A stretch of 64,000 bases of DNA. Source: Naegleria gruberi. Its lineage: Eukaryota. The notes beneath the pieces are model-generated. The model saw nothing but the letters and a program-made list of their open reading frames with translations, was not told where the DNA came from and searched no databases. Both the position numbers and the translations under genes were made by a program. The first letter of the stretch is position 1. The number at the start of each line of letters is the position of its first letter. The stretch lies in assembly GCA_000004985.1 (NCBI GenBank), contig GG738881.1. One strand, written 5' to 3'. This document shows, piece after piece, positions 8,263 through 29,608 of this stretch.

Positions 8263-8491
8263 TTTGATGATTAATGATAATTTTTTTGTGGTGGAAGAAA
8301 AATGGTGAAAAATTGATCTAGTATTTTGTTTCAGCAAGTGGAAGGTAAATGTCAATGCAAAAAGGATGAGTGCTGATGGATTTTGAGTATGTATTAATGT
8401 TTGTCCTTGTTTTGTGCTTGCCCGAGTGGTTCAAGTTAAAAATTGAATTGTGTAAAAGAATATGTGAGGGAAAATAAGAAAATGAATGTAT

Positions 8492-8565
8492 GCAGCGATA
8501 GATCAGTTGGTTAGATCGTAAGCCTAACACGCTTAAGGTCGCGGGTTCAAGCCCCGCTCGCTGTA
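8492..8565 (+). tRNA. tRNA-Val-AAC: tRNA-Val (anticodon AAC).
   Basis: The acceptor stem is GCAGCGA/TCGCTGT with a G1-U72 wobble pair. The anticodon arm AAGCC-TAACACG-CTTAA matches the eukaryotic Val-AAC family. T-arm GCGGG TTCAAGC CCCGC and a T4 run downstream. Confidence 0.9.
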
Positions 8566-8636
8566 GCCTTTTGCATGATAATTTATTAATTTAAGAACGG
8601 GCTAAAAAGTTACAATTTATTTGGATTGCTTTAATG

Positions 8637-12017: not shown

Positions 12018-13136
12018 TCAGACAAGAAAACATGGCTTTGGTATTTCATTAGTCTTTTGAAAATTCTCAATTAAAATAGTTAGTCTGAAAATGGAGCCCT
12101 TATCAGAGTCAGTTGGTGGTTTGGTGAGCAAATGAATTCGAATAAATTCCAAAATTTTAACAAATTTTGACTTGTAGGTTTGGTACATTTTGTAAGCAGC
12201 AATTCCAAGAAATGAATCCAAAATTTCAATAGTGAATAAGTGATGTTGCGAGTTTAGTATGGCAGCAATCCATTCCCAACCCTTATCGATACCATATTGA
12301 TGACCTGGTGGATTGTGCTGAATGATCATGGCATAGACAGTAATGATATCGTTCATTCTGTTCATGAATTGTATTCGATTCTCCAATTTCCCATCCACTT
12401 CCTTGTATCCAATTTTTTTGAAATCAGTAATTTGACTGTTAGATCCAATTTCTGAATTAATTGGCATAGTAAACCCAGAATTGAAATGTATATATCCTAT
12501 TGCACTATCCAATATTGCTGGGAAATTGTTAGTCAATTCACAGGTGACCTGAATATAAGGCAGCACCTTTTTAAGGTCACTTGTTTGACTTGCTGCCTGA
12601 TCCACTGCTGTTTTTGCATAAAAGTACAAGTAGTTAGATAGTGTATTCGAATCTGTGTTTTTCATGATATGATCAAGTTCTGCTACAATTTCACTTTGGT
12701 TAGTTGCTGATATTCTGTTAATTGCCTTATTAATATGTTTCTTTGTAATATCCATTTTAGTTTCTCGATATAATAGTGACCATAGGTTCTTGCTAAACAT
12801 GGCTCTTAATGTTGTATTGAAATGTTTCAAATGGTCTCGGAGTCCAACACTTGGATTAATGTCATCCTCAATATCCAGAATGGTTTCAGTAGCAGTAGGA
12901 ATAGTTTGATAGTCTTTTTCCTCTTTAACGGATTTTCTCTCTTCCTTCACTTCCTCTTTTCCAATATTCTTGATAGTTTCTTCAACAGTATGTGATTTTT
13001 GATTTGAGTTTCGTTTCTTGGCTTGATGATCAACAATGTTCTCCTCAGATTTAATTTCATCCTCTGAGTCATATTCTTCTAAAAGTCCATATCGTCCAGA
13101 ACATTCCATTCCCTTCCGCAAAGAATGATCAATACT
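12018..13136 (-). CDS. Hypothetical protein. The 5' end runs into the 9.3-kb gap; at least 367 aa are visible.
   Basis: The long ORF remains open upstream of the first Met into the gap edge (…SIDHSLRKGMEC…). No recognised domain. Confidence 0.45.
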   Translation of the reverse strand, partial: SIDHSLRKGMECSGRYGLLEEYDSEDEIKSEENIVDHQAKKRNSNQKSHTVEETIKNIGKEEVKEERKSVKEEKDYQTIPTATETILDIEDDINPSVGLRDHLKHFNTTLRAMFSKNLWSLLYRETKMDITKKHINKAINRISATNQSEIVAELDHIMKNTDSNTLSNYLYFYAKTAVDQAASQTSDLKKVLPYIQVTCELTNNFPAILDSAIGYIHFNSGFTMPINSEIGSNSQITDFKKIGYKEVDGKLENRIQFMNRMNDIITVYAMIIQHNPPGHQYGIDKGWEWIAAILNSQHHLFTIEILDSFLGIAAYKMYQTYKSKFVKILEFIRIHLLTKPPTDSDKGSIFRLTILIENFQKTNEIPKPCFLV

Positions 13137-16100
13137 NNNNNNNNNNNNNNNNNNNNNNNNNNNNNNNNNNNNNNNNNNNNNNNNNNNNNNNNNNNNNNNN
13201 NNNNNNNNNNNNNNNNNNNNNNNNNNNNNNNNNNNNNNNNNNNNNNNNNNNNNNNNNNNNNNNNNNNNNNNNNNNNNNNNNNNNNNNNNNNNNNNNNNNN
13301 NNNNNNNNNNNNNNNNNNNNNNNNNNNNNNNNNNNNNNNNNNNNNNNNNNNNNNNNNNNNNNNNNNNNNNNNNNNNNNNNNNNNNNNNNNNNNNNNNNNN
13401 NNNNNNNNNNNNNNNNNNNNNNNNNNNNNNNNNNNNNNNNNNNNNNNNNNNNNNNNNNNNNNNNNNNNNNNNNNNNNNNNNNNNNNNNNNNNNNNNNNNN
13501 NNNNNNNNNNNNNNNNNNNNNNNNNNNNNNNNNNNNNNNNNNNNNNNNNNNNNNNNNNNNNNNNNNNNNNNNNNNNNNNNNNNNNNNNNNNNNNNNNNNN
13601 NNNNNNNNNNNNNNNNNNNNNNNNNNNNNNNNNNNNNNNNNNNNNNNNNNNNNNNNNNNNNNNNNNNNNNNNNNNNNNNNNNNNNNNNNNNNNNNNNNNN
13701 NNNNNNNNNNNNNNNNNNNNNNNNNNNNNNNNNNNNNNNNNNNNNNNNNNNNNNNNNNNNNNNNNNNNNNNNNNNNNNNNNNNNNNNNNNNNNNNNNNNN
13801 NNNNNNNNNNNNNNNNNNNNNNNNNNNNNNNNNNNNNNNNNNNNNNNNNNNNNNNNNNNNNNNNNNNNNNNNNNNNNNNNNNNNNNNNNNNNNNNNNNNN
13901 NNNNNNNNNNNNNNNNNNNNNNNNNNNNNNNNNNNNNNNNNNNNNNNNNNNNNNNNNNNNNNNNNNNNNNNNNNNNNNNNNNNNNNNNNNNNNNNNNNNN
14001 NNNNNNNNNNNNNNNNNNNNNNNNNNNNNNNNNNNNNNNNNNNNNNNNNNNNNNNNNNNNNNNNNNNNNNNNNNNNNNNNNNNNNNNNNNNNNNNNNNNN
14101 NNNNNNNNNNNNNNNNNNNNNNNNNNNNNNNNNNNNNNNNNNNNNNNNNNNNNNNNNNNNNNNNNNNNNNNNNNNNNNNNNNNNNNNNNNNNNNNNNNNN
14201 NNNNNNNNNNNNNNNNNNNNNNNNNNNNNNNNNNNNNNNNNNNNNNNNNNNNNNNNNNNNNNNNNNNNNNNNNNNNNNNNNNNNNNNNNNNNNNNNNNNN
14301 NNNNNNNNNNNNNNNNNNNNNNNNNNNNNNNNNNNNNNNNNNNNNNNNNNNNNNNNNNNNNNNNNNNNNNNNNNNNNNNNNNNNNNNNNNNNNNNNNNNN
14401 NNNNNNNNNNNNNNNNNNNNNNNNNNNNNNNNNNNNNNNNNNNNNNNNNNNNNNNNNNNNNNNNNNNNNNNNNNNNNNNNNNNNNNNNNNNNNNNNNNNN
14501 NNNNNNNNNNNNNNNNNNNNNNNNNNNNNNNNNNNNNNNNNNNNNNNNNNNNNNNNNNNNNNNNNNNNNNNNNNNNNNNNNNNNNNNNNNNNNNNNNNNN
14601 NNNNNNNNNNNNNNNNNNNNNNNNNNNNNNNNNNNNNNNNNNNNNNNNNNNNNNNNNNNNNNNNNNNNNNNNNNNNNNNNNNNNNNNNNNNNNNNNNNNN
14701 NNNNNNNNNNNNNNNNNNNNNNNNNNNNNNNNNNNNNNNNNNNNNNNNNNNNNNNNNNNNNNNNNNNNNNNNNNNNNNNNNNNNNNNNNNNNNNNNNNNN
14801 NNNNNNNNNNNNNNNNNNNNNNNNNNNNNNNNNNNNNNNNNNNNNNNNNNNNNNNNNNNNNNNNNNNNNNNNNNNNNNNNNNNNNNNNNNNNNNNNNNNN
14901 NNNNNNNNNNNNNNNNNNNNNNNNNNNNNNNNNNNNNNNNNNNNNNNNNNNNNNNNNNNNNNNNNNNNNNNNNNNNNNNNNNNNNNNNNNNNNNNNNNNN
15001 NNNNNNNNNNNNNNNNNNNNNNNNNNNNNNNNNNNNNNNNNNNNNNNNNNNNNNNNNNNNNNNNNNNNNNNNNNNNNNNNNNNNNNNNNNNNNNNNNNNN
15101 NNNNNNNNNNNNNNNNNNNNNNNNNNNNNNNNNNNNNNNNNNNNNNNNNNNNNNNNNNNNNNNNNNNNNNNNNNNNNNNNNNNNNNNNNNNNNNNNNNNN
15201 NNNNNNNNNNNNNNNNNNNNNNNNNNNNNNNNNNNNNNNNNNNNNNNNNNNNNNNNNNNNNNNNNNNNNNNNNNNNNNNNNNNNNNNNNNNNNNNNNNNN
15301 NNNNNNNNNNNNNNNNNNNNNNNNNNNNNNNNNNNNNNNNNNNNNNNNNNNNNNNNNNNNNNNNNNNNNNNNNNNNNNNNNNNNNNNNNNNNNNNNNNNN
15401 NNNNNNNNNNNNNNNNNNNNNNNNNNNNNNNNNNNNNNNNNNNNNNNNNNNNNNNNNNNNNNNNNNNNNNNNNNNNNNNNNNNNNNNNNNNNNNNNNNNN
15501 NNNNNNNNNNNNNNNNNNNNNNNNNNNNNNNNNNNNNNNNNNNNNNNNNNNNNNNNNNNNNNNNNNNNNNNNNNNNNNNNNNNNNNNNNNNNNNNNNNNN
15601 NNNNNNNNNNNNNNNNNNNNNNNNNNNNNNNNNNNNNNNNNNNNNNNNNNNNNNNNNNNNNNNNNNNNNNNNNNNNNNNNNNNNNNNNNNNNNNNNNNNN
15701 NNNNNNNNNNNNNNNNNNNNNNNNNNNNNNNNNNNNNNNNNNNNNNNNNNNNNNNNNNNNNNNNNNNNNNNNNNNNNNNNNNNNNNNNNNNNNNNNNNNN
15801 NNNNNNNNNNNNNNNNNNNNNNNNNNNNNNNNNNNNNNNNNNNNNNNNNNNNNNNNNNNNNNNNNNNNNNNNNNNNNNNNNNNNNNNNNNNNNNNNNNNN
15901 NNNNNNNNNNNNNNNNNNNNNNNNNNNNNNNNNNNNNNNNNNNNNNNNNNNNNNNNNNNNNNNNNNNNNNNNNNNNNNNNNNNNNNNNNNNNNNNNNNNN
16001 NNNNNNNNNNNNNNNNNNNNNNNNNNNNNNNNNNNNNNNNNNNNNNNNNNNNNNNNNNNNNNNNNNNNNNNNNNNNNNNNNNNNNNNNNNNNNNNNNNNN

Positions 16101-19100
16101 NNNNNNNNNNNNNNNNNNNNNNNNNNNNNNNNNNNNNNNNNNNNNNNNNNNNNNNNNNNNNNNNNNNNNNNNNNNNNNNNNNNNNNNNNNNNNNNNNNNN
16201 NNNNNNNNNNNNNNNNNNNNNNNNNNNNNNNNNNNNNNNNNNNNNNNNNNNNNNNNNNNNNNNNNNNNNNNNNNNNNNNNNNNNNNNNNNNNNNNNNNNN
16301 NNNNNNNNNNNNNNNNNNNNNNNNNNNNNNNNNNNNNNNNNNNNNNNNNNNNNNNNNNNNNNNNNNNNNNNNNNNNNNNNNNNNNNNNNNNNNNNNNNNN
16401 NNNNNNNNNNNNNNNNNNNNNNNNNNNNNNNNNNNNNNNNNNNNNNNNNNNNNNNNNNNNNNNNNNNNNNNNNNNNNNNNNNNNNNNNNNNNNNNNNNNN
16501 NNNNNNNNNNNNNNNNNNNNNNNNNNNNNNNNNNNNNNNNNNNNNNNNNNNNNNNNNNNNNNNNNNNNNNNNNNNNNNNNNNNNNNNNNNNNNNNNNNNN
16601 NNNNNNNNNNNNNNNNNNNNNNNNNNNNNNNNNNNNNNNNNNNNNNNNNNNNNNNNNNNNNNNNNNNNNNNNNNNNNNNNNNNNNNNNNNNNNNNNNNNN
16701 NNNNNNNNNNNNNNNNNNNNNNNNNNNNNNNNNNNNNNNNNNNNNNNNNNNNNNNNNNNNNNNNNNNNNNNNNNNNNNNNNNNNNNNNNNNNNNNNNNNN
16801 NNNNNNNNNNNNNNNNNNNNNNNNNNNNNNNNNNNNNNNNNNNNNNNNNNNNNNNNNNNNNNNNNNNNNNNNNNNNNNNNNNNNNNNNNNNNNNNNNNNN
16901 NNNNNNNNNNNNNNNNNNNNNNNNNNNNNNNNNNNNNNNNNNNNNNNNNNNNNNNNNNNNNNNNNNNNNNNNNNNNNNNNNNNNNNNNNNNNNNNNNNNN
17001 NNNNNNNNNNNNNNNNNNNNNNNNNNNNNNNNNNNNNNNNNNNNNNNNNNNNNNNNNNNNNNNNNNNNNNNNNNNNNNNNNNNNNNNNNNNNNNNNNNNN
17101 NNNNNNNNNNNNNNNNNNNNNNNNNNNNNNNNNNNNNNNNNNNNNNNNNNNNNNNNNNNNNNNNNNNNNNNNNNNNNNNNNNNNNNNNNNNNNNNNNNNN
17201 NNNNNNNNNNNNNNNNNNNNNNNNNNNNNNNNNNNNNNNNNNNNNNNNNNNNNNNNNNNNNNNNNNNNNNNNNNNNNNNNNNNNNNNNNNNNNNNNNNNN
17301 NNNNNNNNNNNNNNNNNNNNNNNNNNNNNNNNNNNNNNNNNNNNNNNNNNNNNNNNNNNNNNNNNNNNNNNNNNNNNNNNNNNNNNNNNNNNNNNNNNNN
17401 NNNNNNNNNNNNNNNNNNNNNNNNNNNNNNNNNNNNNNNNNNNNNNNNNNNNNNNNNNNNNNNNNNNNNNNNNNNNNNNNNNNNNNNNNNNNNNNNNNNN
17501 NNNNNNNNNNNNNNNNNNNNNNNNNNNNNNNNNNNNNNNNNNNNNNNNNNNNNNNNNNNNNNNNNNNNNNNNNNNNNNNNNNNNNNNNNNNNNNNNNNNN
17601 NNNNNNNNNNNNNNNNNNNNNNNNNNNNNNNNNNNNNNNNNNNNNNNNNNNNNNNNNNNNNNNNNNNNNNNNNNNNNNNNNNNNNNNNNNNNNNNNNNNN
17701 NNNNNNNNNNNNNNNNNNNNNNNNNNNNNNNNNNNNNNNNNNNNNNNNNNNNNNNNNNNNNNNNNNNNNNNNNNNNNNNNNNNNNNNNNNNNNNNNNNNN
17801 NNNNNNNNNNNNNNNNNNNNNNNNNNNNNNNNNNNNNNNNNNNNNNNNNNNNNNNNNNNNNNNNNNNNNNNNNNNNNNNNNNNNNNNNNNNNNNNNNNNN
17901 NNNNNNNNNNNNNNNNNNNNNNNNNNNNNNNNNNNNNNNNNNNNNNNNNNNNNNNNNNNNNNNNNNNNNNNNNNNNNNNNNNNNNNNNNNNNNNNNNNNN
18001 NNNNNNNNNNNNNNNNNNNNNNNNNNNNNNNNNNNNNNNNNNNNNNNNNNNNNNNNNNNNNNNNNNNNNNNNNNNNNNNNNNNNNNNNNNNNNNNNNNNN
18101 NNNNNNNNNNNNNNNNNNNNNNNNNNNNNNNNNNNNNNNNNNNNNNNNNNNNNNNNNNNNNNNNNNNNNNNNNNNNNNNNNNNNNNNNNNNNNNNNNNNN
18201 NNNNNNNNNNNNNNNNNNNNNNNNNNNNNNNNNNNNNNNNNNNNNNNNNNNNNNNNNNNNNNNNNNNNNNNNNNNNNNNNNNNNNNNNNNNNNNNNNNNN
18301 NNNNNNNNNNNNNNNNNNNNNNNNNNNNNNNNNNNNNNNNNNNNNNNNNNNNNNNNNNNNNNNNNNNNNNNNNNNNNNNNNNNNNNNNNNNNNNNNNNNN
18401 NNNNNNNNNNNNNNNNNNNNNNNNNNNNNNNNNNNNNNNNNNNNNNNNNNNNNNNNNNNNNNNNNNNNNNNNNNNNNNNNNNNNNNNNNNNNNNNNNNNN
18501 NNNNNNNNNNNNNNNNNNNNNNNNNNNNNNNNNNNNNNNNNNNNNNNNNNNNNNNNNNNNNNNNNNNNNNNNNNNNNNNNNNNNNNNNNNNNNNNNNNNN
18601 NNNNNNNNNNNNNNNNNNNNNNNNNNNNNNNNNNNNNNNNNNNNNNNNNNNNNNNNNNNNNNNNNNNNNNNNNNNNNNNNNNNNNNNNNNNNNNNNNNNN
18701 NNNNNNNNNNNNNNNNNNNNNNNNNNNNNNNNNNNNNNNNNNNNNNNNNNNNNNNNNNNNNNNNNNNNNNNNNNNNNNNNNNNNNNNNNNNNNNNNNNNN
18801 NNNNNNNNNNNNNNNNNNNNNNNNNNNNNNNNNNNNNNNNNNNNNNNNNNNNNNNNNNNNNNNNNNNNNNNNNNNNNNNNNNNNNNNNNNNNNNNNNNNN
18901 NNNNNNNNNNNNNNNNNNNNNNNNNNNNNNNNNNNNNNNNNNNNNNNNNNNNNNNNNNNNNNNNNNNNNNNNNNNNNNNNNNNNNNNNNNNNNNNNNNNN
19001 NNNNNNNNNNNNNNNNNNNNNNNNNNNNNNNNNNNNNNNNNNNNNNNNNNNNNNNNNNNNNNNNNNNNNNNNNNNNNNNNNNNNNNNNNNNNNNNNNNNN

Positions 19101-22100
19101 NNNNNNNNNNNNNNNNNNNNNNNNNNNNNNNNNNNNNNNNNNNNNNNNNNNNNNNNNNNNNNNNNNNNNNNNNNNNNNNNNNNNNNNNNNNNNNNNNNNN
19201 NNNNNNNNNNNNNNNNNNNNNNNNNNNNNNNNNNNNNNNNNNNNNNNNNNNNNNNNNNNNNNNNNNNNNNNNNNNNNNNNNNNNNNNNNNNNNNNNNNNN
19301 NNNNNNNNNNNNNNNNNNNNNNNNNNNNNNNNNNNNNNNNNNNNNNNNNNNNNNNNNNNNNNNNNNNNNNNNNNNNNNNNNNNNNNNNNNNNNNNNNNNN
19401 NNNNNNNNNNNNNNNNNNNNNNNNNNNNNNNNNNNNNNNNNNNNNNNNNNNNNNNNNNNNNNNNNNNNNNNNNNNNNNNNNNNNNNNNNNNNNNNNNNNN
19501 NNNNNNNNNNNNNNNNNNNNNNNNNNNNNNNNNNNNNNNNNNNNNNNNNNNNNNNNNNNNNNNNNNNNNNNNNNNNNNNNNNNNNNNNNNNNNNNNNNNN
19601 NNNNNNNNNNNNNNNNNNNNNNNNNNNNNNNNNNNNNNNNNNNNNNNNNNNNNNNNNNNNNNNNNNNNNNNNNNNNNNNNNNNNNNNNNNNNNNNNNNNN
19701 NNNNNNNNNNNNNNNNNNNNNNNNNNNNNNNNNNNNNNNNNNNNNNNNNNNNNNNNNNNNNNNNNNNNNNNNNNNNNNNNNNNNNNNNNNNNNNNNNNNN
19801 NNNNNNNNNNNNNNNNNNNNNNNNNNNNNNNNNNNNNNNNNNNNNNNNNNNNNNNNNNNNNNNNNNNNNNNNNNNNNNNNNNNNNNNNNNNNNNNNNNNN
19901 NNNNNNNNNNNNNNNNNNNNNNNNNNNNNNNNNNNNNNNNNNNNNNNNNNNNNNNNNNNNNNNNNNNNNNNNNNNNNNNNNNNNNNNNNNNNNNNNNNNN
20001 NNNNNNNNNNNNNNNNNNNNNNNNNNNNNNNNNNNNNNNNNNNNNNNNNNNNNNNNNNNNNNNNNNNNNNNNNNNNNNNNNNNNNNNNNNNNNNNNNNNN
20101 NNNNNNNNNNNNNNNNNNNNNNNNNNNNNNNNNNNNNNNNNNNNNNNNNNNNNNNNNNNNNNNNNNNNNNNNNNNNNNNNNNNNNNNNNNNNNNNNNNNN
20201 NNNNNNNNNNNNNNNNNNNNNNNNNNNNNNNNNNNNNNNNNNNNNNNNNNNNNNNNNNNNNNNNNNNNNNNNNNNNNNNNNNNNNNNNNNNNNNNNNNNN
20301 NNNNNNNNNNNNNNNNNNNNNNNNNNNNNNNNNNNNNNNNNNNNNNNNNNNNNNNNNNNNNNNNNNNNNNNNNNNNNNNNNNNNNNNNNNNNNNNNNNNN
20401 NNNNNNNNNNNNNNNNNNNNNNNNNNNNNNNNNNNNNNNNNNNNNNNNNNNNNNNNNNNNNNNNNNNNNNNNNNNNNNNNNNNNNNNNNNNNNNNNNNNN
20501 NNNNNNNNNNNNNNNNNNNNNNNNNNNNNNNNNNNNNNNNNNNNNNNNNNNNNNNNNNNNNNNNNNNNNNNNNNNNNNNNNNNNNNNNNNNNNNNNNNNN
20601 NNNNNNNNNNNNNNNNNNNNNNNNNNNNNNNNNNNNNNNNNNNNNNNNNNNNNNNNNNNNNNNNNNNNNNNNNNNNNNNNNNNNNNNNNNNNNNNNNNNN
20701 NNNNNNNNNNNNNNNNNNNNNNNNNNNNNNNNNNNNNNNNNNNNNNNNNNNNNNNNNNNNNNNNNNNNNNNNNNNNNNNNNNNNNNNNNNNNNNNNNNNN
20801 NNNNNNNNNNNNNNNNNNNNNNNNNNNNNNNNNNNNNNNNNNNNNNNNNNNNNNNNNNNNNNNNNNNNNNNNNNNNNNNNNNNNNNNNNNNNNNNNNNNN
20901 NNNNNNNNNNNNNNNNNNNNNNNNNNNNNNNNNNNNNNNNNNNNNNNNNNNNNNNNNNNNNNNNNNNNNNNNNNNNNNNNNNNNNNNNNNNNNNNNNNNN
21001 NNNNNNNNNNNNNNNNNNNNNNNNNNNNNNNNNNNNNNNNNNNNNNNNNNNNNNNNNNNNNNNNNNNNNNNNNNNNNNNNNNNNNNNNNNNNNNNNNNNN
21101 NNNNNNNNNNNNNNNNNNNNNNNNNNNNNNNNNNNNNNNNNNNNNNNNNNNNNNNNNNNNNNNNNNNNNNNNNNNNNNNNNNNNNNNNNNNNNNNNNNNN
21201 NNNNNNNNNNNNNNNNNNNNNNNNNNNNNNNNNNNNNNNNNNNNNNNNNNNNNNNNNNNNNNNNNNNNNNNNNNNNNNNNNNNNNNNNNNNNNNNNNNNN
21301 NNNNNNNNNNNNNNNNNNNNNNNNNNNNNNNNNNNNNNNNNNNNNNNNNNNNNNNNNNNNNNNNNNNNNNNNNNNNNNNNNNNNNNNNNNNNNNNNNNNN
21401 NNNNNNNNNNNNNNNNNNNNNNNNNNNNNNNNNNNNNNNNNNNNNNNNNNNNNNNNNNNNNNNNNNNNNNNNNNNNNNNNNNNNNNNNNNNNNNNNNNNN
21501 NNNNNNNNNNNNNNNNNNNNNNNNNNNNNNNNNNNNNNNNNNNNNNNNNNNNNNNNNNNNNNNNNNNNNNNNNNNNNNNNNNNNNNNNNNNNNNNNNNNN
21601 NNNNNNNNNNNNNNNNNNNNNNNNNNNNNNNNNNNNNNNNNNNNNNNNNNNNNNNNNNNNNNNNNNNNNNNNNNNNNNNNNNNNNNNNNNNNNNNNNNNN
21701 NNNNNNNNNNNNNNNNNNNNNNNNNNNNNNNNNNNNNNNNNNNNNNNNNNNNNNNNNNNNNNNNNNNNNNNNNNNNNNNNNNNNNNNNNNNNNNNNNNNN
21801 NNNNNNNNNNNNNNNNNNNNNNNNNNNNNNNNNNNNNNNNNNNNNNNNNNNNNNNNNNNNNNNNNNNNNNNNNNNNNNNNNNNNNNNNNNNNNNNNNNNN
21901 NNNNNNNNNNNNNNNNNNNNNNNNNNNNNNNNNNNNNNNNNNNNNNNNNNNNNNNNNNNNNNNNNNNNNNNNNNNNNNNNNNNNNNNNNNNNNNNNNNNN
22001 NNNNNNNNNNNNNNNNNNNNNNNNNNNNNNNNNNNNNNNNNNNNNNNNNNNNNNNNNNNNNNNNNNNNNNNNNNNNNNNNNNNNNNNNNNNNNNNNNNNN

Positions 22101-22455
22101 NNNNNNNNNNNNNNNNNNNNNNNNNNNNNNNNNNNNNNNNNNNNNNNNNNNNNNNNNNNNNNNNNNNNNNNNNNNNNNNNNNNNNNNNNNNNNNNNNNNN
22201 NNNNNNNNNNNNNNNNNNNNNNNNNNNNNNNNNNNNNNNNNNNNNNNNNNNNNNNNNNNNNNNNNNNNNNNNNNNNNNNNNNNNNNNNNNNNNNNNNNNN
22301 NNNNNNNNNNNNNNNNNNNNNNNNNNNNNNNNNNNNNNNNNNNNNNNNNNNNNNNNNNNNNNNNNNNNNNNNNNNNNNNNNNNNNNNNNNNNNNNNNNNN
22401 NNNNNNNNNNNNNNNNNNNNNNNNNNNNNNNNNNNNNNNNNNNNNNNNNNNNNNN
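13137..22455. other. Assembly gap (9319 N).
   Basis: Run of N. It is flanked on the right by a tandem-repeat coding region, which is the likely cause of the assembly break. Confidence 1.
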
Positions 22456-23520
22456 GTTTGTCAAGGTAATTTCAAAGGAGTTGACTGTTCTCAATGTAAA
22501 TCAGGATGGAAAGGAGCTAATTGTGATGAACCAATTTGTGATTCAAAATGTAGAAAATGCTATTCACCAAACCAGTGCGCGCTATGTGACGGAAACTATT
22601 CTGGTGATAGGTGTGATAGTTGTACATCTGGATGGACTGGATCTGATTGTAATACTCCTGTTTGTGATTCAAAATGCACAACATGTGATTCACCAAATCA
22701 ATGTTCAGTTTGTAAAGGAAACTTTGAAGGATCTGACTGCTCCACATGCAAATCTGGATGGTCTGAATCTGATTGTAACACACCAGTTTGTGATTTGAAA
22801 TGCAAACAATGTGATTCTCCAAATCAATGCTCATCCTGTAATGGAAACTTTGCTGGATCAGACTGTTCAAGCTGTAAGTCTGGATGGACTGGATCTCTCT
22901 GTGATATTCCAATTTGTGATTCCAAATGTACTAATTGTTCTGCCCCATCCAAATGCTCAAAATGTCAAGGAAACTTCCAAGGTTTCGAATGTGATTCTTG
23001 TACAGATGGATGGAAAGGAACTGACTGTGACCAACCAATTTGTGATTCCAAATGTTCAGTTTGTGATTCTCCAAATCAGTGTAGAGTATGTAATGGTAAT
23101 TTTGAGGGATCTGACTGTTCCATTTGTACTACTGGCTGGAAAGGAGCTAATTGTGTAGTACCTATTTGTGACAGTAAGTGCACAACTTGTGATTCTCCAA
23201 ATCAATGTTCTGTTTGTCAAGGTAACTACAAAGGTGCTCAATGTGACAATTGTCAAGATGGTTGGACTGGCACTGATTGCAATAAGCCAATTTGTGACAG
23301 TAAGTGTACTACTTGTGATTCACCTGCTAAATGCTCAAAATGTCAAGGAAACTTCCAGGGATCTGATTGCTCCTCATGCAAATCAGGATGGAAGGGAGCT
23401 AATTGTGATGAACCAATTTGTGATTCAAAATGTTCTGAGTGCTCTGCTCCAAATCAATGTTCGACCTGTAGTGATAATTATGATGGTAACGACTGCTCTG
23501 GTTGTAAATCAGGATATAGT
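22456..23520 (+). repeat. Coding tandem repeat: about 8.5 copies of a 126-bp (42-codon) unit.
   Basis: Successive units begin at 22519, 22639/22645, 22765/22771, 22891, 23017, 23143, 23269 and 23395. Each unit encodes PICDSKC-x2-C-x-SPNQC-x2-C-x-GNF-x-GSDCS-x-CKSGW-x-G-x2-C. Confidence 0.85.
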
Positions 23521-25713
23521 GGAACCAATTGCTCATTGAGTATTTGTTATGGGCTGACCAACCAAGATGCCAATGTTTGTTCTGGACACGGTTCTTGTGT
23601 ATTGCCAAGTGTTTGTAAATGTAATTCCAAATGGTTTGGAGATAATTGTGAATTAACTTCATGCTATGGTATTATGAAGAATGACACTGGTGTTTGTAGC
23701 AAACAAGGTTCTTGTATTGGCCCTGACGTTTGTTCATGTAAGACTGGTTACAAATCCAGTGCTGATTGTTCGGTTGTCTCATGTGAAAATTTGAATAGTT
23801 GTAGTTCTCATGGTTCTTGTGTTGGACCTAACTCTTGTACATGTAGTGCTGGTTGGAAATCATCTGGTGATTGTAGCTCTCCTTCATGTGAATTGGTTTC
23901 AAACTGTAATGCACGAGGATCATGTTCTGGACCTAATGTTTGTACATGTTCAGGTGGATTCTTTGGTAAAAAGTGTGAATTGGCAACATGCTTTGGAGTT
24001 GCTGGCGATTTGAATACAGGTTGTAGTGGAAATGGAGAGTGTTTTACAACCGATACTTGTTCTTGCAATGCTGGTTATTATGGAGCTAGGTGCGATTTTA
24101 AGGTTAACCTGGAAGCAACCAAGAAGGTTACAAACTTTAAGCAATTTTTCATTGAACCAACTGTTTACAATCCATCTGGGTTATCTATTGGCTATAAATG
24201 GTCTCAAGTTGGAGGACCATCAATTAATTTAGAATCAATTAGTGAGAATACAATTTCCAACCCCAAACTTGTGATTAGATCTGAAAATGGATTGACCAAG
24301 GGACAATCCTATACCTTGCTGTTAACTACCACTAGGTCTGATAATGTTATTATTACAAATAGTATAGTTTTGAATGTTAACATCGATCCAGTAATCGATT
24401 GGTTCAGCACTGTCAACCCATCAACTGGACAATCTGTAGGTATTGCTGGTGTTACTTCATTCAATGCAAGCATTGCTTCTGCAACTGATCCAGATGGTGA
24501 TTCCGATTCTTTGCAATATTCATTTGGTTATATAGTGGATGGAAAGAGATTTGTTTCAAAGGAATTTTCTTATTCAACCTCAACAATCTTCCGACTTCCT
24601 CTTCCAAGCAATAACTTGGCTGAAGTTTTCTACATTGCTAAAGATGATATGGGAGCAACAACCGAAGTTCAATCTGTAGTTGTTGTGAATAATCCATCTT
24701 CAAGTATGAATTCTTCTCAAATAGCCAAATTGGTTGACTCAATGTTGGAAAAACCATCAATTGACCAACTTTATTTCGCCACCTCATTGATCAAATCATC
24801 AAGTGATTCAGAATCTAGTATTGTCAAAAATAAGATTATTGATGCCCTCTACAATCAAACTGAGTCCAATCCTGAACTTGCTGTCGCAATTTTAAGTGAA
24901 TTGTCAAATAAGACTCTGGACAACTCGCACGGAAGCAAGGCTCTTAGAATGCTTGAAATTTTGTCAAATATTTCAGACAGTTATGAAACTATTTTACAAA
25001 CATCTTCCAAATTGATTAGTTACACCCAGTCAACTTCCGAAAATAGACAAGTTATGAATGCAATTTTGGAAAATATTTCATCATCTTTGGCTAAGAATAT
25101 GGCAACAGGTAGTATTATTAAGACTATTTCTAATAATTTGTTAAACATTATTATTAAGAACAATGTAGATCTCTTGAATATCACCTTGCCAAGTTCAATT
25201 GGTGTTAATGGATTGACTATTCCAACATCAAATCTCAAGAATGTGGTTTCAAATCACACAATTGCATTCAGTATTACTATTTTGCCATCCTCATCTTTAA
25301 GTTTCCTCTCTATTCCTGTTTCATCCTCAGTATATAAGATCAAGCTCTTCTGGGATAGTGGAGTAATGATAAATATTACTAAATTGAACACTCCATTTGA
25401 ATTTGAAATGACTGTTGTTGGTACCTCTAGTGGTGTCGAACCAGAATGTAGATATTTTGATGAAAGAACTAATACTTTGACAAAGGATGGTGTTGAAACC
25501 ATTGTTATTTCTCCGACTCGTGTTAAGTGCAGAGTTTATCAATTAGGAGATTTCACTACAACCTTAATTTCAAAGGCTACAAGCTCGCCTGCTCCAGAAA
25601 AATCAAAGGTACAACCAAAGATTTCTCAAAGAGCAAATACTGCATCCACTACTAGTCAATTTTCATTTATGATGATGTTGCTTTTTGTGATTGTTGTTGT
25701 TTTCATGTTGTAA
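22456..25713 (+). CDS. Cysteine-rich repeat surface glycoprotein with a C-terminal hydrophobic tail (GPI signal or TM). The 5' end is missing in the gap.
   Basis: The region is open in frame from the gap edge. It encodes at least nine 42-aa 8-Cys modules, then five EGF-like modules (CSGHGSCVLPSVCKCNSKWFGDNCEL…), then a Ser/Thr/Asn-rich stalk, and ends …TSQFSFMMMLLFVIVVVFML. Confidence 0.8.
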   Translation, partial: VCQGNFKGVDCSQCKSGWKGANCDEPICDSKCRKCYSPNQCALCDGNYSGDRCDSCTSGWTGSDCNTPVCDSKCTTCDSPNQCSVCKGNFEGSDCSTCKSGWSESDCNTPVCDLKCKQCDSPNQCSSCNGNFAGSDCSSCKSGWTGSLCDIPICDSKCTNCSAPSKCSKCQGNFQGFECDSCTDGWKGTDCDQPICDSKCSVCDSPNQCRVCNGNFEGSDCSICTTGWKGANCVVPICDSKCTTCDSPNQCSVCQGNYKGAQCDNCQDGWTGTDCNKPICDSKCTTCDSPAKCSKCQGNFQGSDCSSCKSGWKGANCDEPICDSKCSECSAPNQCSTCSDNYDGNDCSGCKSGYSGTNCSLSICYGLTNQDANVCSGHGSCVLPSVCKCNSKWFGDNCELTSCYGIMKNDTGVCSKQGSCIGPDVCSCKTGYKSSADCSVVSCENLNSCSSHGSCVGPNSCTCSAGWKSSGDCSSPSCELVSNCNARGSCSGPNVCTCSGGFFGKKCELATCFGVAGDLNTGCSGNGECFTTDTCSCNAGYYGARCDFKVNLEATKKVTNFKQFFIEPTVYNPSGLSIGYKWSQVGGPSINLESISENTISNPKLVIRSENGLTKGQSYTLLLTTTRSDNVIITNSIVLNVNIDPVIDWFSTVNPSTGQSVGIAGVTSFNASIASATDPDGDSDSLQYSFGYIVDGKRFVSKEFSYSTSTIFRLPLPSNNLAEVFYIAKDDMGATTEVQSVVVVNNPSSSMNSSQIAKLVDSMLEKPSIDQLYFATSLIKSSSDSESSIVKNKIIDALYNQTESNPELAVAILSELSNKTLDNSHGSKALRMLEILSNISDSYETILQTSSKLISYTQSTSENRQVMNAILENISSSLAKNMATGSIIKTISNNLLNIIIKNNVDLLNITLPSSIGVNGLTIPTSNLKNVVSNHTIAFSITILPSSSLSFLSIPVSSSVYKIKLFWDSGVMINITKLNTPFEFEMTVVGTSSGVEPECRYFDERTNTLTKDGVETIVISPTRVKCRVYQLGDFTTTLISKATSSPAPEKSKVQPKISQRANTASTTSQFSFMMMLLFVIVVVFML

Positions 25714-26614
25714 ATAAATTATTCTTTTAATTTAGCTATTAAAGTGAAGAAATTTCTTTAATCCGAGATGGCGACGGTTTGCTTGTGTTTTTTTAAAGGC
25801 TGATTCTTTCTAAAATGCCATTCTTTTGGCGCCAAATGTAACGGCAAATAAAGCCTATTACAATATCTTTCCTTTTGAATACCATTTCATCACTACCAAG
25901 AGTTGTTTTACAAGGATCTTCGTGTTTACATGTACGTAATAAGTGCTGAATTTGATTGAAAACTTTGATAAAGTTACTCCTATTCACAAAATTCAAGATA
26001 AAAAATATGAACAAATTGTAAAAGGTACCTGGAAGGATGTTCTTCCTCTAATTCCTTTTTGAAAAGCAATATCTGCCATAAATGTCAGATTGACCACATA
26101 AACAATAACAAAAAGAAAAGGTCAAGCCATTATGACTCTCATCTCAAAACCTCGTTCTCCAGATGTCAACAAACAACGCTACAAGCCCACCATCTTCAAC
26201 ATGTATGGCGAGTAATAATGAAGAGTCAAGTCCAGGAAATACATCCTAACCAAAGATGAAACAATGTGGAAGAATTACTGGTTGGATAATTTATTGGCTG
26301 TTGGTGCTCTTTGGATGGCTAGTAATAACTGTTCGTGGATTATGAGAGCTTCACCTGTTAATCCAAATAATCCAGAAGATTATAGAAAGGATCTCTTTCT
26401 TGGAAGTAATCACACTGTGCATAAGGGATATCCTGCTATCATTATGGACTACATGGTTCGCTGTTGCTGCTAATTTGATTCTCTGTGAAATTTACATTAA
26501 TATGGTGGTAAGAAAGAAGGATGAAAAGAAAGTCCCAACAATTCATACTTTTCATGTAACTTCAGCTTCTCTTTGACAATAGGTTAACAAAACGAATAAT
26601 AAAAGGGTTAAAAA

Positions 26615-26731
26615 GACTACAGCACCACAGGTTCCCAAGTTGTCTCCAACCTCAGTACTGATGTGGCTCGACGATGCTTAACTTCTCAAATCGGACGGGA
26701 TGAGGTGCATTCATCGTGATATGGCCGTAGC
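26615..26731 (-). rRNA. 5S: 5S ribosomal RNA gene, a solitary copy.
   Basis: The minus-strand sequence GCTACGGCCATATCACGATGAATGCACCTCATCCCGTCCGATTTGAGAAGTTAAGCATCGTCGAGCCACATCAGTACTGAGGTTGGAGACAACTTGGGAACCTGTGGTGCTGTAGTC matches the eukaryotic 5S consensus. Helix I pairs GCTACGGC with GCTGTAGT, the box A element AGTTAAGC and a GGGAAC loop E-like region are present, and a TTTT terminator follows. Confidence 0.9.
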
Positions 26732-26879
26732 CATTCAATTCCTTAATCTTTCCATTTTCAATCATATCAGAAATCAGTTGATTGAAAAATCTTGAGATTG
26801 GTTTCTTAGATTATTGAGCTCAATGATTTTGGCAAAAGATGGAATATATTATTTATTGTTAAAACAGTTTGTAGATTAT

Positions 26880-27704
26880 TTACAATTCATCCTTTGAACA
26901 TGTTGAAATACCAGTCAAATCAATATTTCCAATAAATTCTACATCAAGATGGCATTTGACAAGTCTTTCCTCTACCTTACTCCAATCAATAACTTTCCAA
27001 TAATCATTGACATAATTCAAACGTCTATTTTGGTGCTTCAAATAATAAGCATGCTCCCAAACATCAAGTGATAAGATTGGCTCCTCAATAGTCAGTTGCT
27101 TTGAATCAGCAGAATTTTCATTCAAATAAGCATTATCTTGATTGGCAAAACTCTTGATAACCAAATCAAATTGAGTTGGATTAGCAGTATTAACTCTCTT
27201 CAATAAAAAGACCCAACCAGATCCAAAAACTTTCATAGAAGCATCATTGAATTGAGCAATAAACTTTTCAACAGATCCAAAATGTTTAACCAAAGCTTGT
27301 TCAACTCTTGGAGTTGGCTTATTCTCACCAGAGGAAGGCTTCTTCAAAGAAGCAAAGAATAAATTATGATTCACAACACCACCTCCATTATTTCTAACTT
27401 GTTTTCTGGTAGCTTCATCACTTGTGGTGAGTAAATGTAAATTGGCAAGGAGAGTTTCAACTCTGCTACTCTTTTCAACGATCGGATCAGCCTTTAAAAC
27501 TCCAAGAGCAGCATTAATATTATTTACATAGGCTTGATGATGTCCGGAATGATGTACTTTCATGGTGGCTTCATCAATAACAGGTTCTAATTCATTGTAT
27601 GGATAGGACAAGGTTTGGAGGCTTACTTTGGTCAATTCAGAGTTGACACTGTAAATCAAGCCAATTACAATGCACAATACAACGAGCAGTGATTGTTTAA
27701 TCAT
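26880..27704 (-). CDS. Mn/Fe superoxide dismutase with an N-terminal signal peptide and a C-terminal KDEL tetrapeptide. Intronless, 274 aa.
   Basis: Metal ligands and motifs are present: HHSGHHQAYVNN, VNHNLFF and DVWEHAYYL. A hydrophobic N-terminus MIKQSLLVVLCIVIGLIYSVNS precedes the SOD fold. The protein ends …GISTCSKDEL. Confidence 0.9.
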   Translation of the reverse strand: MIKQSLLVVLCIVIGLIYSVNSELTKVSLQTLSYPYNELEPVIDEATMKVHHSGHHQAYVNNINAALGVLKADPIVEKSSRVETLLANLHLLTTSDEATRKQVRNNGGGVVNHNLFFASLKKPSSGENKPTPRVEQALVKHFGSVEKFIAQFNDASMKVFGSGWVFLLKRVNTANPTQFDLVIKSFANQDNAYLNENSADSKQLTIEEPILSLDVWEHAYYLKHQNRRLNYVNDYWKVIDWSKVEERLVKCHLDVEFIGNIDLTGISTCSKDEL

Positions 27705-27861
27705 TTTTTTTAAATTGATTTTTTAAATATTAAATATATTTAAAATGATCATTACAATTTTATTAAAAAAGAATATTGCTCTTTGAATTTTAATATTAAT
27801 CTCAATAAAATTAATACTCAAATTGTGCAAATATTTTAAATAATAATAATATTTAAAAAAA
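27705..27861. promoter_or_regulatory. A 157-bp, extremely AT-rich divergent intergenic region shared by the SOD gene (minus) and the cyclophilin gene (plus).
   Basis: The start codons of the two genes lie head-to-head at 27704 and 27862. Confidence 0.5.
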
Positions 27862-28507
27862 ATGTCTCGACCAATTGTGTTTATGGAATTCAATGTCGCC
27901 AACAAGAAAGTTGGACGTGTAGAAATTGAATTGTTCTCCGATATTGTGCCAAAAACTGCTGAAAATTTCCGAGCATTGTGTACAGGTAGGTTGTGAGGAT
28001 GATTGCTCAGAACTTTACTCATGCTTGTATAACAATTTTGATACACTTTCCGATATTGCATTACATTGTGTGGATTCTCTTCTAATATTATTTGATAATT
28101 TTAAAGGCGAAAAGGGACAAAAAGGAGGAAAGGCATTGCATTATAAAAATTGTAAAGTGCACAGAATTGAACCAGGATTTTGCATTCAATCAGGAGATAT
28201 TTTGAAAGGAAATGGAACTGGAGGAAAATCAATCTATGATTCTGGTAAATTGGAAGATGAAAACTTCACTGTAAAACATAGTGGACCAGGAATTGTTTCA
28301 ATGGCTAATAGTGGACCAAATACAGCTTCAAGTCAATTCTTTTTCACAATGTCAGATGAAGCTTTACCTCAATTGGATGGAAAGCATGTTGCTTTTGGTA
28401 AAGTTATTTCAGGATATGATGTTTTGAAGAGTTTGGAACAATACGGAAACAGATTAGGAAATGTGGACAAGAAAGTTGTCATTTGTGATTGTGGTCAAGT
28501 TCAATAA
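27862..28507 (+). CDS. Cyclophilin-type peptidyl-prolyl isomerase, cytosolic type. Two exons, 27862-27985 and 28107-28507, with a 121-bp intron.
   Basis: Exon 1 encodes [42 protein letters not shown]. Exon 2 encodes EKGQ…[14 protein letters not shown]…GTGGKSIY…[17 protein letters not shown]…[11 protein letters not shown]. The intron is gtaggt…ttaaag. The ORF-track entry 27926-28507 reads through the intron. Confidence 0.85.
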
Positions 28508-28551: not shown

Positions 28552-29608
28552 TTAATCCTTTGGTGGAGAACCACTGGAACTTGATGAATCAGCAATATAT
28601 TGCAGCAAATTCTCTGAAGATGATACAGAAAGTGAATCCTCTTCCTCTCCCGAACTACTACTACTTGTCATTAAATTTATCATATCCAAGTCTTCATCCG
28701 AATCATCAAAATTTGGTTTGGCTGCTTTTGGTGGACTTTTTTTTGTTGGACCCTTTCTTCTTGTTCTCTTCTTTGGTTTTTCATCACTTTCATATTCAGG
28801 CTCCTCTGGTTCTTGTTCGGATGACTCGTCGGAAAAGTCCTCTTCCTCTTCTTGCTCATCTTCATAATCCTCATCATCTTCACTATCATGAAATCCTCTC
28901 TTTTTCCTCTTTTTTGGAGCACTTGAAGAATTGGAACCATTCTTCTTAGAGGTTTGTTTTTTAGGTTTTTGATCCAACGAAGTGGTTTCATAGGAATTGT
29001 CTTCCTCTTCATCTGAGAATTTATATTCCTCCTCTTCTTCCTCTCCAAATAGTGCATCTTCCGAATAGTCAACTATAGCTCTACTTCTTCCACCACTTGA
29101 TGCTGCAGCTGCAGCTCTTCTACTTCCTCTCATATTTAAACATCGTTCCAGATGAGGAGCATAGCCTGAATGGCCAATTTCTCTCTTACAATTTGCACAA
29201 ACAACGTGAGTCCGAGTAATAGGTAGATGGTTTGTATCAATTTCTGGAAAGACGGAAACTTGTTCCTGCAGTGAAAATTGTTTTTTAGCTACAGAAGGTT
29301 TTTCTGTTGTTCTGTTGTTGGAGAAGTACTCGTTTCCTTCTCTCCTCTCCAACCATTTTAATACATTGTTCCACCAGTATTTCTTTCACCAGTAAATCCA
29401 AAATATGTTCTTGTATTCTTGTTGTATGATTAAATGTTTTCTTGATGTTGTTTTTTGTTACTTGTTCCGAAGAGGAATTTTCCATAACATTCTGTTCATC
29501 AACATCTTCATGATCAATTACTATTACATCATCATCGTCTACTACATTTACTACATTTGAATAATTTTGTTGTTCTTCTTTCGCGAAACTTCTGAGTTTT
29601 TGTTGCAT
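28552..29608 (-). CDS. Sgf11/ATXN7L3-like protein (SAGA deubiquitinase-module zinc finger) with an acidic/Ser-rich tail. Probably two exons, 29608-29354 and 29265-28552.
   Basis: The zinc finger VVCANCKREIGHSGYAPHLERCLNM matches the Sgf11/ATXN7L3 finger ([24 protein letters not shown]). The two ORFs are in different frames and can be joined by an 88-bp intron (GTTGGA…CAG). The donor is weak, so the junction is tentative. Confidence 0.55.

Follow-up and report, generated by a model that had tools for sequence, protein, structure and literature searches.

Can a superoxide dismutase (SOD) of the Fe/Mn family reside in the lumen of the endoplasmic reticulum (ER)? The textbook sites of SOD action are the cytosol, mitochondria, plastids, peroxisomes, and the extracellular space, and to our knowledge the accepted list of ER residents contains no SOD. 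The question is raised by a gene on Naegleria gruberi contig GG738881.1 (assembly GCA_000004985.1), of which we analyzed a stretch of 64,000 nucleotides (the window), and which codes for an Mn-type SOD with a predicted signal peptide at one end and KDEL at the other. Full-text searches, which reached a minority of subscription papers, returned no paper on an ER-retained Fe/Mn-SOD and none naming NAEGRDRAFT_69926 or the N. fowleri orthologue FDP41_007610, and literature searches found no localization data for any member of the subfamily. A 2025 review of ER redox biology describes the ER as having few or no detectable classical antioxidant enzymes, SOD included (PMC12781119).

Gene structure and genomic setting

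The SOD coding sequence occupies coordinates 26880–27704 on the minus strand as a single exon of 274 codons followed by a TAA stop codon (26880–26882), as given by the ORF listing and by direct reading of the sequence. The 274-residue product, from ATG to TAA, matches N. gruberi XP_002674960.1 (NAEGRDRAFT_69926) from end to end at 100% identity, and the single-exon model therefore corresponds to the public annotation. The GC content (0.348) and GC3 (0.273) equal those of the neighboring genes, which include an intron-containing cyclophilin gene, a 5S rRNA gene, and genes for Sgf11 and an EGF-repeat protein. This is a real and native gene of N. gruberi. Bacterial contamination and recent horizontal transfer were considered and rejected on base composition and the eukaryotic neighbors.

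The cyclophilin gene (Pfam Pro_isomerase, E 1e-41 for the spliced product) is transcribed divergently from an ATG at 27862, and the AT-rich spacer between the two genes (27705–27861, either strand), which presumably contains both promoters, is exactly the 157 bp reported in the sequence-only reading of this locus. The two genes are not neighbors in N. fowleri or Willaertia, so that the shared promoter probably has no functional meaning and the arrangement is probably incidental. Co-regulation of SOD and cyclophilin was rejected on the same comparison and on the cyclophilin itself, which lacks a leader and looks cytosolic.

Fold, active site, and metal

Both domains of the Fe/Mn-SOD family are present above their curated cut-offs. 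The Sod_Fe_N alpha-hairpin domain (PF00081; residues 28–120, coordinates 27345–27623, minus strand) scores 77.7 bits (E 9.6e-22) against a cut-off of 27, and the Sod_Fe_C alpha/beta domain (PF02777; residues 131–247, coordinates 26964–27314, minus strand) scores 104.1 bits (E 4.5e-30) against 20.9. The motifs HHSGHH, NHN, and DVWEHAYY lie at residues 51–56, 112–114, and 214–221, respectively, and the metal ligands, claimed earlier to be intact, are all present in invariant columns of the family alignment: H51 and H113 in the N-terminal domain and D214 and H218 in the C-terminal domain. The second-sphere residues H55 and Y59 (the gateway pair, His30 and Tyr34 in E. coli numbering) and Q189 are likewise in invariant columns, and the dimer-interface residues E217 and Y221 are in invariant or near-invariant ones. 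Mn-type markers are found in ANQD (Q189/D190), NNGGGVVNH (G107–G109, the glycines ahead of the second ligand His), and DVWEHAYY, and these positions agree with E. coli SodA and human SOD2.

The AF2 model has the MnSOD fold, with a mean pLDDT of 89.4, values mostly above 90 for residues 31–190, and a block of 91–98 in the Sod_Fe_N region. Foldseek aligns it with MnSODs of B. subtilis, E. coli, Anabaena, and others at TM(target) values of about 0.9, and PDB sequence matches reach E 2.5e-44. Two insertions in the Sod_Fe_C domain, at around residues 168–180 and 191–207, are specific to the heterolobosean sequences in the alignment. From the residues and the model the protein is predicted to be a catalytically competent, bacterial-type dimeric SOD of the Mn class, and the sequence markers suggest that the bound metal is Mn.

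N-terminal leader

The first 22 residues (MIKQSLLVVLCIVIGLIYSVNS; coordinates 27639–27704, minus strand) form a predicted cleavable signal peptide, divided by our own heuristic n/h/c analysis as MIKQS / LLVVLCIVIGLIYSV / NS. The n-region is short and basic with a charge of +1, the h-core consists of 15 uninterrupted hydrophobic residues with a mean Kyte-Doolittle value of 3.0, and there is a single (-3,-1) cleavage site, after residue 22 (between VNS and EL). This anatomy fits the hydrophobic cleavable leader that had been proposed for the protein. The AF2 model has a helix at residues 2–17 that is separate from the SOD fold, and about six residues lie between the predicted cleavage site and the fold. 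Cleavage after Ser22, which the heuristic analysis suggests, would generate the semi-tryptic N-terminal peptide ELTKVSLQTLSYPYNELEPVIDEATMK. A mitochondrial presequence is not supported, as there is no Arg in the first 30 residues, no amphipathic character, and a 15-residue hydrophobic core.

The orthologues carry equivalent leaders by alignment and the same heuristic analysis, with hydrophobic cores that range from 15 residues (N. gruberi) through 16 (N. lovaniensis) and 18 (P0005) to 20 (N. fowleri). The 20-residue core of the N. fowleri leader could serve as a signal anchor.

C-terminal tail

Beyond the SOD fold, tail comparison and alignment delimit an extension at residues 249–270 (VKCHLDVEFIGNIDLTGISTCS; coordinates 26895–26960, minus strand), and this is followed by the codons AAG GAT GAA TTG (26883–26894, minus strand), read directly from the sequence, which specify KDEL, a predicted ER-retrieval signal. 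The SKDEL ending described in the sequence-only reading is thus present at the extreme C-terminus, as residues 270–274 with the stop codon next to it. A splice isoform that removes the tail is not supported, as the gene is a single ORF without interruption and shows homology from one end to the other. Among the 45 ORFs of at least 80 codons' worth of residues (>=80 aa) in the window, the SOD is the only one that ends in [KHR]DEL, which, together with the retention of KDEL in the orthologues (below), speaks against a chance ending. Reading of the mature protein by eye reveals no N-glycosylation sequons, and lumenal exposure gains no added support from this feature.

The tail has no secondary structure in the AF2 model and pLDDT drops along it from about 67 to 52. 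A core of D-V-[ED]-F-[IV] is kept among heteroloboseans, and two cysteines are kept only within Naegleria. The DVEF segment is thus conserved yet unstructured in the model, and a Cys250–Cys269 disulfide is possible.

Terminal KDEL is present in all five heterolobosean orthologues compared (N. gruberi, N. lovaniensis, N. fowleri, Willaertia magna, and one environmental heterolobosean), and a search for homologues lacking leader and KDEL found that the other four have both. The tails otherwise range from 24 to 79 residues and differ in sequence, and one orthologue has about 55 extra low-complexity residues ahead of KDEL; strict retention of the tetrapeptide in spite of this divergence argues for selection for receptor binding. 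Four independent genome assemblies of heteroloboseans contain orthologues, and an intron interrupts the N. fowleri gene. The N. gruberi KDEL receptor (D2V4W2) is described as canonical, as are the K/HDEL cargo motifs of Naegleria (PMC10903960).

Proteomics of N. fowleri reported two further Fe-SODs and a Cu,Zn-SOD (PMC7326272), by which other compartments would be covered. The same study names a 'manganese SOD NF0015750', which we sought to match to the KDEL orthologue FDP41_007610, but the identifier and sequences are absent from its supplementary text (PMC7326272).

Related sequences and phylogeny

The arrangement of leader, SOD, and [HKR][DE]EL is also found in cnidarians, echinoderms, molluscs, annelids, amphioxus, sponges, a lungfish, and a chytrid, and marine protist relatives have a leader together with K-x-E-L variants. 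The animal relatives keep H/K/R-D/E-E-L tails, mostly HDEL. The arrangement, which the sequence-only reading had called unusual, is not peculiar to Naegleria, as it recurs in animals, a chytrid, and protists.

In an NJ tree of 380 sequences (196 core columns, 100 bootstraps) the heterolobosean clade has 95% bootstrap support, whereas support is 0% at the nodes that unite heteroloboseans with the animal HDEL forms, so that a common origin for all SODs of the ER-type design is a hypothesis. Tails matching [KRHQSA][DENQ]EL$ occur in 38 of the 56 members of the clade containing Naegleria versus 5 of 322 sequences outside it (Fisher p 6e-33), a clustering that may be inflated by a sample drawn with ER-type queries. 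Two residues of the Naegleria SOD are also characteristic of the tailed forms: G54 occurs in 79% of these and in 7% of the other sequences, and H224 in 83% and 16%, respectively. The nearest tree neighbors, P0298 and P0299, have a leader and lack an xDEL tail, and a protist relative from Hondaea (P0467) carries the database label 'mitochondrial'.

One tailed relative has been studied biochemically. The Ps-Mn-SOD of the sea cucumber Paelopatides (P0178), which has a signal peptide according to SignalP 4.1, ends in HEEL, and is 36% identical to the Naegleria SOD in our alignment, is an active dimeric SOD as a recombinant mature protein; the paper makes no mention of an ER signal or ER retention (PMC6410416). 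The enzyme made in E. coli retained 7.7% of its activity in 10 mM H2O2, i.e. 92% was lost (PMC6410416), a sensitivity that resembles that of Fe-SODs and suggests Fe loading or cambialism.

We tentatively propose, as a reading somewhat less likely than not, that the Naegleria gene may represent an ancient and unrecognized ER-SOD family. Its members would be bacterial-type MnSODs acting in the ER lumen of Discoba, of chytrid fungi, of marine protists resembling stramenopiles, and of Metazoa from sponges to amphioxus and lungfish, and the family would have been lost from yeast, fly, worm, mouse and human, and Arabidopsis.

A predicted SOD of the early secretory pathway

The N. gruberi gene has SOD domains, catalytic residues, a leader, and a KDEL tail that are conserved among its relatives, and we consider it likely that the product is a competent, bacterial-type dimeric enzyme of the Mn class acting in the lumen of the ER or early secretory pathway. 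It is likely also a member of a wider eukaryotic subfamily built on the plan of leader, SOD, and xDEL. Residence in the ER is suggested by the two targeting signals. The 22-residue signal peptide would direct co-translational import via Sec61, and its removal after Ser22 would leave about six residues ahead of the SOD fold. The protein would then fold, be loaded with metal in the lumen, and probably dimerize, with the flexible tail offering KDEL to the Golgi KDEL receptor (ERD2) such that escaped SOD is returned to the ER. Lumenal superoxide, a membrane-impermeant anion, would be converted to O2 and H2O2, and the H2O2 could either supply peroxidase and disulfide chemistry in the ER or place a load on it. 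We infer a physiological source of lumenal superoxide, for which lumen-facing NADPH oxidases or flavoprotein side reactions are candidates; the role against superoxide from oxidative folding that was suggested for this SOD is speculation.

An alternative is that the SOD is a secretory-pathway enzyme working beyond the ER (secreted, phagosomal or lysosomal, in the contractile vacuole, or in the cyst wall), with KDEL merely slowing or regulating its export. Phagocytic amoebae produce superoxide in extracytosolic compartments, the plant MnSOD AtMSD2 is reported to be apoplastic, and in other organisms the presence of KDEL does not keep every protein from sites beyond the ER. The close bacterial relatives include exported or extracellular leader-bearing MnSODs, both the Bacteroidota-type P0006, P0007, and P0010 and the membrane-bound enzymes of Sphingobacterium and Anabaena, and the tree neighbors P0298 and P0299 have the leader but not the tail. 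However, KDEL is kept exactly in five heteroloboseans and as H/K/R-D/E-E-L in animals, and the KDEL system of Naegleria is described as canonical (PMC10903960), and we consider a site of action beyond the ER unlikely.

It is less probable still that the leader remains uncleaved and, as a type II signal anchor, holds the SOD domain at the ER membrane on its lumenal side, as in the cyanobacterial membrane-bound MnSOD. The PDB sequence that matches best is 1gv3, the catalytic portion of the Anabaena membrane-bound MnSOD, and the hydrophobic cores of P0005 and N. fowleri (18 and 20 residues) are longer than those of N. gruberi and N. lovaniensis; but the 15- and 16-residue cores of the latter two are short for a membrane span, small residues occupy -1 and -3 after the N. 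gruberi core, and the six or so residues between cleavage site and fold are all that separates the two. In addition, a conserved soluble-cargo KDEL would be redundant on an anchored protein, and cleavage was predicted by SignalP for the sea-cucumber homologue (PMC6410416).

That this is the ordinary mitochondrial MnSOD of Naegleria, with the leader as presequence and a fortuitous KDEL, would fit the usual mitochondrial or plastidial location of eukaryotic Fe/Mn-SODs and the label of the Hondaea relative, but is very improbable in view of a strongly hydrophobic, non-amphipathic leader lacking Arg and of KDEL in every heterolobosean orthologue. Furthermore, the protein matches bacterial MnSODs at E 1e-44 to 1e-38 versus 1e-30 to 1e-28 for human, yeast, and plant mitochondrial enzymes, and N. 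fowleri also has two Fe-SODs and a Cu,Zn-SOD (PMC7326272). An artefact, be it contaminating bacterial DNA, an assembly error, or an inactive pseudo-enzyme, is suggested by the high similarity to bacterial MnSODs and is scarcely credible for a gene with eukaryotic neighbors and their composition, orthologues in four independent assemblies (one with an intron), and all of its catalytic residues.

An SOD acting in the ER lumen thus remains our preferred reading, and the recurrence of a leader and KDEL-type tail on MnSODs of heteroloboseans, animals, a chytrid, and protists points to an overlooked ER antioxidant enzyme. If the proposed family is real, the early secretory pathway of many eukaryotes would manage lumenal superoxide physiologically, and may have done so from the last eukaryotic common ancestor onward, and loss of the family from the classical models would account for the view that the ER lacks SOD. 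Conservation across supergroups would imply that the ER lumen makes superoxide worth detoxifying or turning into H2O2, would provide a handle on its source (e.g. lumen-facing NADPH oxidases or flavoprotein oxidases), and would render the redox picture drawn from yeast and mammals incomplete for much of eukaryotic diversity. The orthologue in N. fowleri is also of relevance, as antioxidant defense is discussed as a virulence trait.

Comparison with known systems

The bacterial dimeric MnSODs (E. coli SodA, B. subtilis SodA, and that of Geobacillus) have the same two-domain fold as the Naegleria SOD, with TM of about 0.9 and 37–44% identity in structural alignments, and share its four ligands, the Mn-type Gln of the C-terminal domain, and the dimer-interface Glu and Tyr. 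They are cytosolic and have neither leader nor C-terminal extension, whereas the Naegleria SOD adds a predicted signal peptide, two internal insertions, and a 26-residue tail ending in KDEL, and has G54 and H224 where K and Y/F are usual. Exported or membrane-bound bacterial MnSODs (Anabaena PCC 7120 SodA, 1gv3; Sphingobacterium T2, 5a9g) resemble it in having an export leader on the same catalytic domain, and the Bacteroidota MnSODs P0006, P0007, and P0010 have Sec/Tat-like leaders in this position. P0006 is its nearest bacterial neighbor in the distance matrix and shares the motif YYLKHQN. These enzymes come from prokaryotes, which have no ER, and they carry no KDEL; the eukaryotic ER form may have descended from an exported bacterial MnSOD.

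Mitochondrial MnSOD (SOD2) shares family and chemistry with the Naegleria SOD and is likewise an organelle-targeted paralogue, but differs by its Arg-rich presequence, its tetramer-type sequence, and the lack of KDEL; in the NJ tree it lies outside the relevant clades. Animal Cu,Zn EC-SOD (SOD3) is a secretory-pathway SOD that is extracellular and belongs to a fold family unrelated to Fe/Mn-SOD. SOD3, Arabidopsis MSD2, and Toxoplasma SOD2 have an N-terminal signal into the ER, as is predicted for the Naegleria SOD, but move onward (to the extracellular space, apoplast, and apicoplast, respectively) and are not known to carry an ER-retrieval signal. Toxoplasma SOD2 is reported to be dually targeted to mitochondrion and apicoplast (PMC1959373).

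In its predicted targeting logic the Naegleria SOD corresponds to BiP, PDI, and calreticulin, soluble ER residents that the KDEL receptor retrieves, which combine a cleavable signal peptide with a C-terminal K/HDEL on a flexible tail but are chaperones or oxidoreductases rather than SODs. Counterparts in overall design are the animal proteins annotated as 'superoxide dismutase [Mn]-like' with HDEL, HEEL, KDEL, or RDEL, which share the order of leader, SOD, and xDEL, the residues G54 and H224, and an NJ clade with it; they are 33–39% identical to the Naegleria SOD and differ in lacking the heterolobosean insertions and the DVEF tail segment.

Gene model and genomic setting

The KDEL-tailed SOD is encoded on the minus strand (26880..27704), where 274 codons follow one another without a break between an ATG and a TAA stop. 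Its product is identical over its full length (100%) to the N. gruberi protein XP_002674960.1 (NAEGRDRAFT_69926, UniProt D2VLW8); this identifies the window as nuclear DNA of N. gruberi, and the single-exon model thus matches the public annotation. The features listed in the sequence-only reading are all encoded in the DNA: the leader MIKQSLLVVLCIVIGLIYSVNS, HHSGHH (residues 51-56), NHN (112-114), DVWEHAYY (214-221), and a terminal SKDEL. The GC and GC3 of the gene equal those of the surrounding genes, showing that it is resident and ruling out contamination as its source. NAEGRDRAFT_69926 is a real gene.

A cyclophilin gene (27862-28507, plus strand; Pfam Pro_isomerase, E 1e-41 with the spliced product) is transcribed divergently from the SOD gene and has two exons (27862-27985 and 28107-28507) separated by one 121-nt GT..AG intron (27986..28106). 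The 157-bp spacer between the SOD gene and the cyclophilin ATG at 27862, described earlier as a shared promoter, is as reported when read from the sequence. This adjacency is absent from the orthologue loci of N. fowleri (L001), where the SOD gene is flanked by a FAD-oxidase gene and a Ras gene, or Willaertia (L002), and the shared promoter region therefore looks incidental. The cyclophilin lacks a leader and is apparently cytosolic.

Downstream of the SOD gene and likewise on the minus strand, 147 bp past the stop codon, is a full-length 5S rRNA gene (26614-26732; Rfam RF00001, 105 bits, E 4e-22), a dispersed copy amid protein-coding genes. Further downstream is a 972-aa plus-strand ORF (22795-25713) with Cys-rich EGF and teneurin-type EGF repeats (Pfam EGF_TEN, EGF_2); a hydrophobic segment at its C-terminal end suggests that the protein is likely at the surface or GPI/TM-anchored, and its true start may be missing because the ORF abuts an assembly gap. 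On the other side, an Sgf11 zinc-finger ORF (28552-29352, minus strand; SAGA deubiquitinase-module subunit; PF08209, E 1e-12) has its domain followed by a long acidic, Ser-rich low-complexity tail. The window also contains genes for tRNA-Gly(GCC) (5509-5580) and tRNA-Val(AAC) (8491-8568), both on the plus strand and called by ARAGORN and Rfam, and N runs at 4020-4168, 10409-11406, and 13137-22455 (149, 998, and 9319 bases). The last of these gaps gives rise to very long artefactual 'ORFs' over 13125-22494 in both orientations.

A complete SOD of bacterial type

Both Fe/Mn-SOD Pfam domains score far over threshold. The ligands H51, H113, D214, and H218, the gateway His55, and Tyr59 occupy invariant or near-invariant alignment columns, as do the dimer-interface residues Glu217 and Tyr221 and Gln189 of the C-terminal domain, where a Gln is a mark of Mn-type SODs. 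An AlphaFold2 model built from a 70-sequence alignment has a mean pLDDT of 89.4, with the core (residues 31-190) mostly above 90, and solved bacterial dimeric MnSODs superpose on it with a target-normalised TM of ~0.9. Bacterial MnSODs (Anabaena, Geobacillus, Xanthomonas, E. coli; E 1e-44 to 1e-40) are much nearer in sequence than the human, yeast, and plant mitochondrial enzymes (about E 1e-28 to 1e-30). The Naegleria enzyme is complete and of the bacterial Mn type, and it is probably active.

Leader and KDEL tail

We dissected the leader with our own heuristic (n-region, hydrophobic core, and (-3,-1) rule). It has an n-region of MIKQS (charge +1), an unbroken 15-residue hydrophobic core (mean Kyte-Doolittle 3.0), and, following residue 22, a single (-3,-1) site, VNS|EL. 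The leader is modelled as a helix apart from the SOD fold, which begins at residue 29. There are no Arg residues in the first 30, which argues against a mitochondrial presequence, and the earlier prediction of a signal peptide is favored by these properties. At the other end, no structure is predicted for residues 249-274 and model confidence declines, as would be expected of a receptor-presented tail.

An equivalent leader and a terminal KDEL are found in every heterolobosean orthologue compared (N. lovaniensis, N. fowleri, Willaertia magna, and one environmental sequence). Their tails vary from 24 to 79 residues and, besides KDEL, have just a short core, D-V-[ED]-F-[IV], in common. The SOD is the only one of 45 window ORFs (>=80 aa) ending in [KHR]DEL. 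A comparative study describes the Naegleria KDEL receptor, D2V4W2, as canonical, with canonical K/HDEL cargo motifs (PMC10903960). By these comparisons leader and tail appear to be real targeting signals under selection.

The N. fowleri orthologue (L001 4001-5106) spans 1106 bp for 291 codons and so must include an intron; the genes of N. gruberi and Willaertia have none. The 213-aa protein P0021 has additional N-terminal residues before the start of P0003 and departs from it past FGSGWV, as if a different gene call had read into the intron at that point.

A wider family of leader-bearing SODs

The matches to the Naegleria SOD included a leader-bearing brittle-star protein ending in HDEL. Used as a query, it retrieved a large animal set whose annotation goes no further than 'superoxide dismutase [Mn]-like' or '[Mn/Fe]-like'. 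HDEL tails occur in Cnidaria (Actinostola, Nematostella), echinoderms (Amphiura, Lytechinus, Apostichopus), molluscs (Haliotis, Liolophura), the annelid Owenia, the cephalochordate Branchiostoma, the myriapod Strigamia, and the lungfish Protopterus; HEEL in the echinoderm Paelopatides and the hemichordate Glandiceps; RDEL in the annelid Capitella and the sponge Sycon; and KDEL in the sponges Corticium and Oscarella. The scallops Ylistrum and Mizuhopecten have HDEF. Searching 1.84 billion representatives with a profile, together with a third, word-indexed search, extended the set to a chytrid fungus (Spizellomyces, RDEL), a labyrinthulomycete (Hondaea, KEDL), and many sequences of marine protists (MMETSP, Tara) in which the leader is short and the tail reads K-[ASPTE]-E-[LVM]. 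Oddities of the animal set include the lungfish P. annectens as the one vertebrate among the matches (P0207), the scallop proteins (P0177/P0180), and two Mytilus models (P0186/P0209) in which four residues follow HDEL (…GHDELYLWF), so that either the signal is masked or the gene model may be wrong.

Neighbour joining of 380 sequences nests the heterolobosean clade (95% bootstrap) with animal forms in a 56-member group, in which 38 members have the strict motif [KRHQSA][DENQ]EL$, versus 5/322 elsewhere (Fisher p 6e-33). Naegleria Gly54 and His224 are typical of tailed forms (79% versus 7% and 83% versus 16%). Because deep nodes lack bootstrap support and the sample was gathered with ER-type queries, common ancestry of the Naegleria and animal forms is suggested rather than shown.

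Predicted localization

With an intact SOD, a leader, and a conserved KDEL, the sequence supports the ER-lumenal interpretation as far as it can do so by itself, and we consider it the probable one. The signal peptide would direct co-translational import, with cleavage after Ser22; the protein would fold, load metal, and probably dimerise in the lumen; its flexible tail would engage the KDEL receptor for return from the Golgi; and lumenal superoxide would be dismutated to O2 and H2O2. We infer that the signal is cleaved and the protein resides in the ER, as well as which metal it uses and where the reactive oxygen species would come from and go to physiologically. A post-ER or secreted SOD, in which KDEL merely modulates export, is unlikely; an uncleaved signal anchor holding the SOD on the lumenal face is less likely still. 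A mitochondrial SOD is very improbable with an Arg-free leader, and an artefact or dead enzyme is hardly credible.

Comparison with known systems

The hadal sea-cucumber Ps-Mn-SOD (P0178, tail KHEEL), cloned after removal of the signal peptide that SignalP predicts for it, is an active dimeric SOD; its authors do not comment on a C-terminal signal or the ER (PMC6410416). It kept 7.7% of its activity after 10 mM H2O2 (PMC6410416), behaviour expected of an Fe-loaded enzyme, and with this 92% loss Mn is a candidate metal of the subfamily. Several members are labelled '[Mn/Fe]-like' by NCBI, and the subfamily may be cambialistic. N. fowleri whole-cell proteomics reported one 'manganese SOD', which may be the KDEL orthologue, together with two Fe-SODs and one Cu,Zn-SOD (PMC7326272). 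According to a 2025 review of ER redox biology (PMC12781119), classical antioxidant enzymes, SOD1 among them, are scarce in the ER or escape detection there. The Naegleria protein is an Fe/Mn-SOD family member, and no description of an ER-retained Fe/Mn-SOD was found in the literature searched.

None of the matches carrying the leader-SOD-xDEL design comes from a standard model organism; to our knowledge, the SOD repertoires of those organisms agree with this absence. The interest lies in that absence and in the apparent breadth of the design more than in Naegleria alone, and its wide spread alters the picture.
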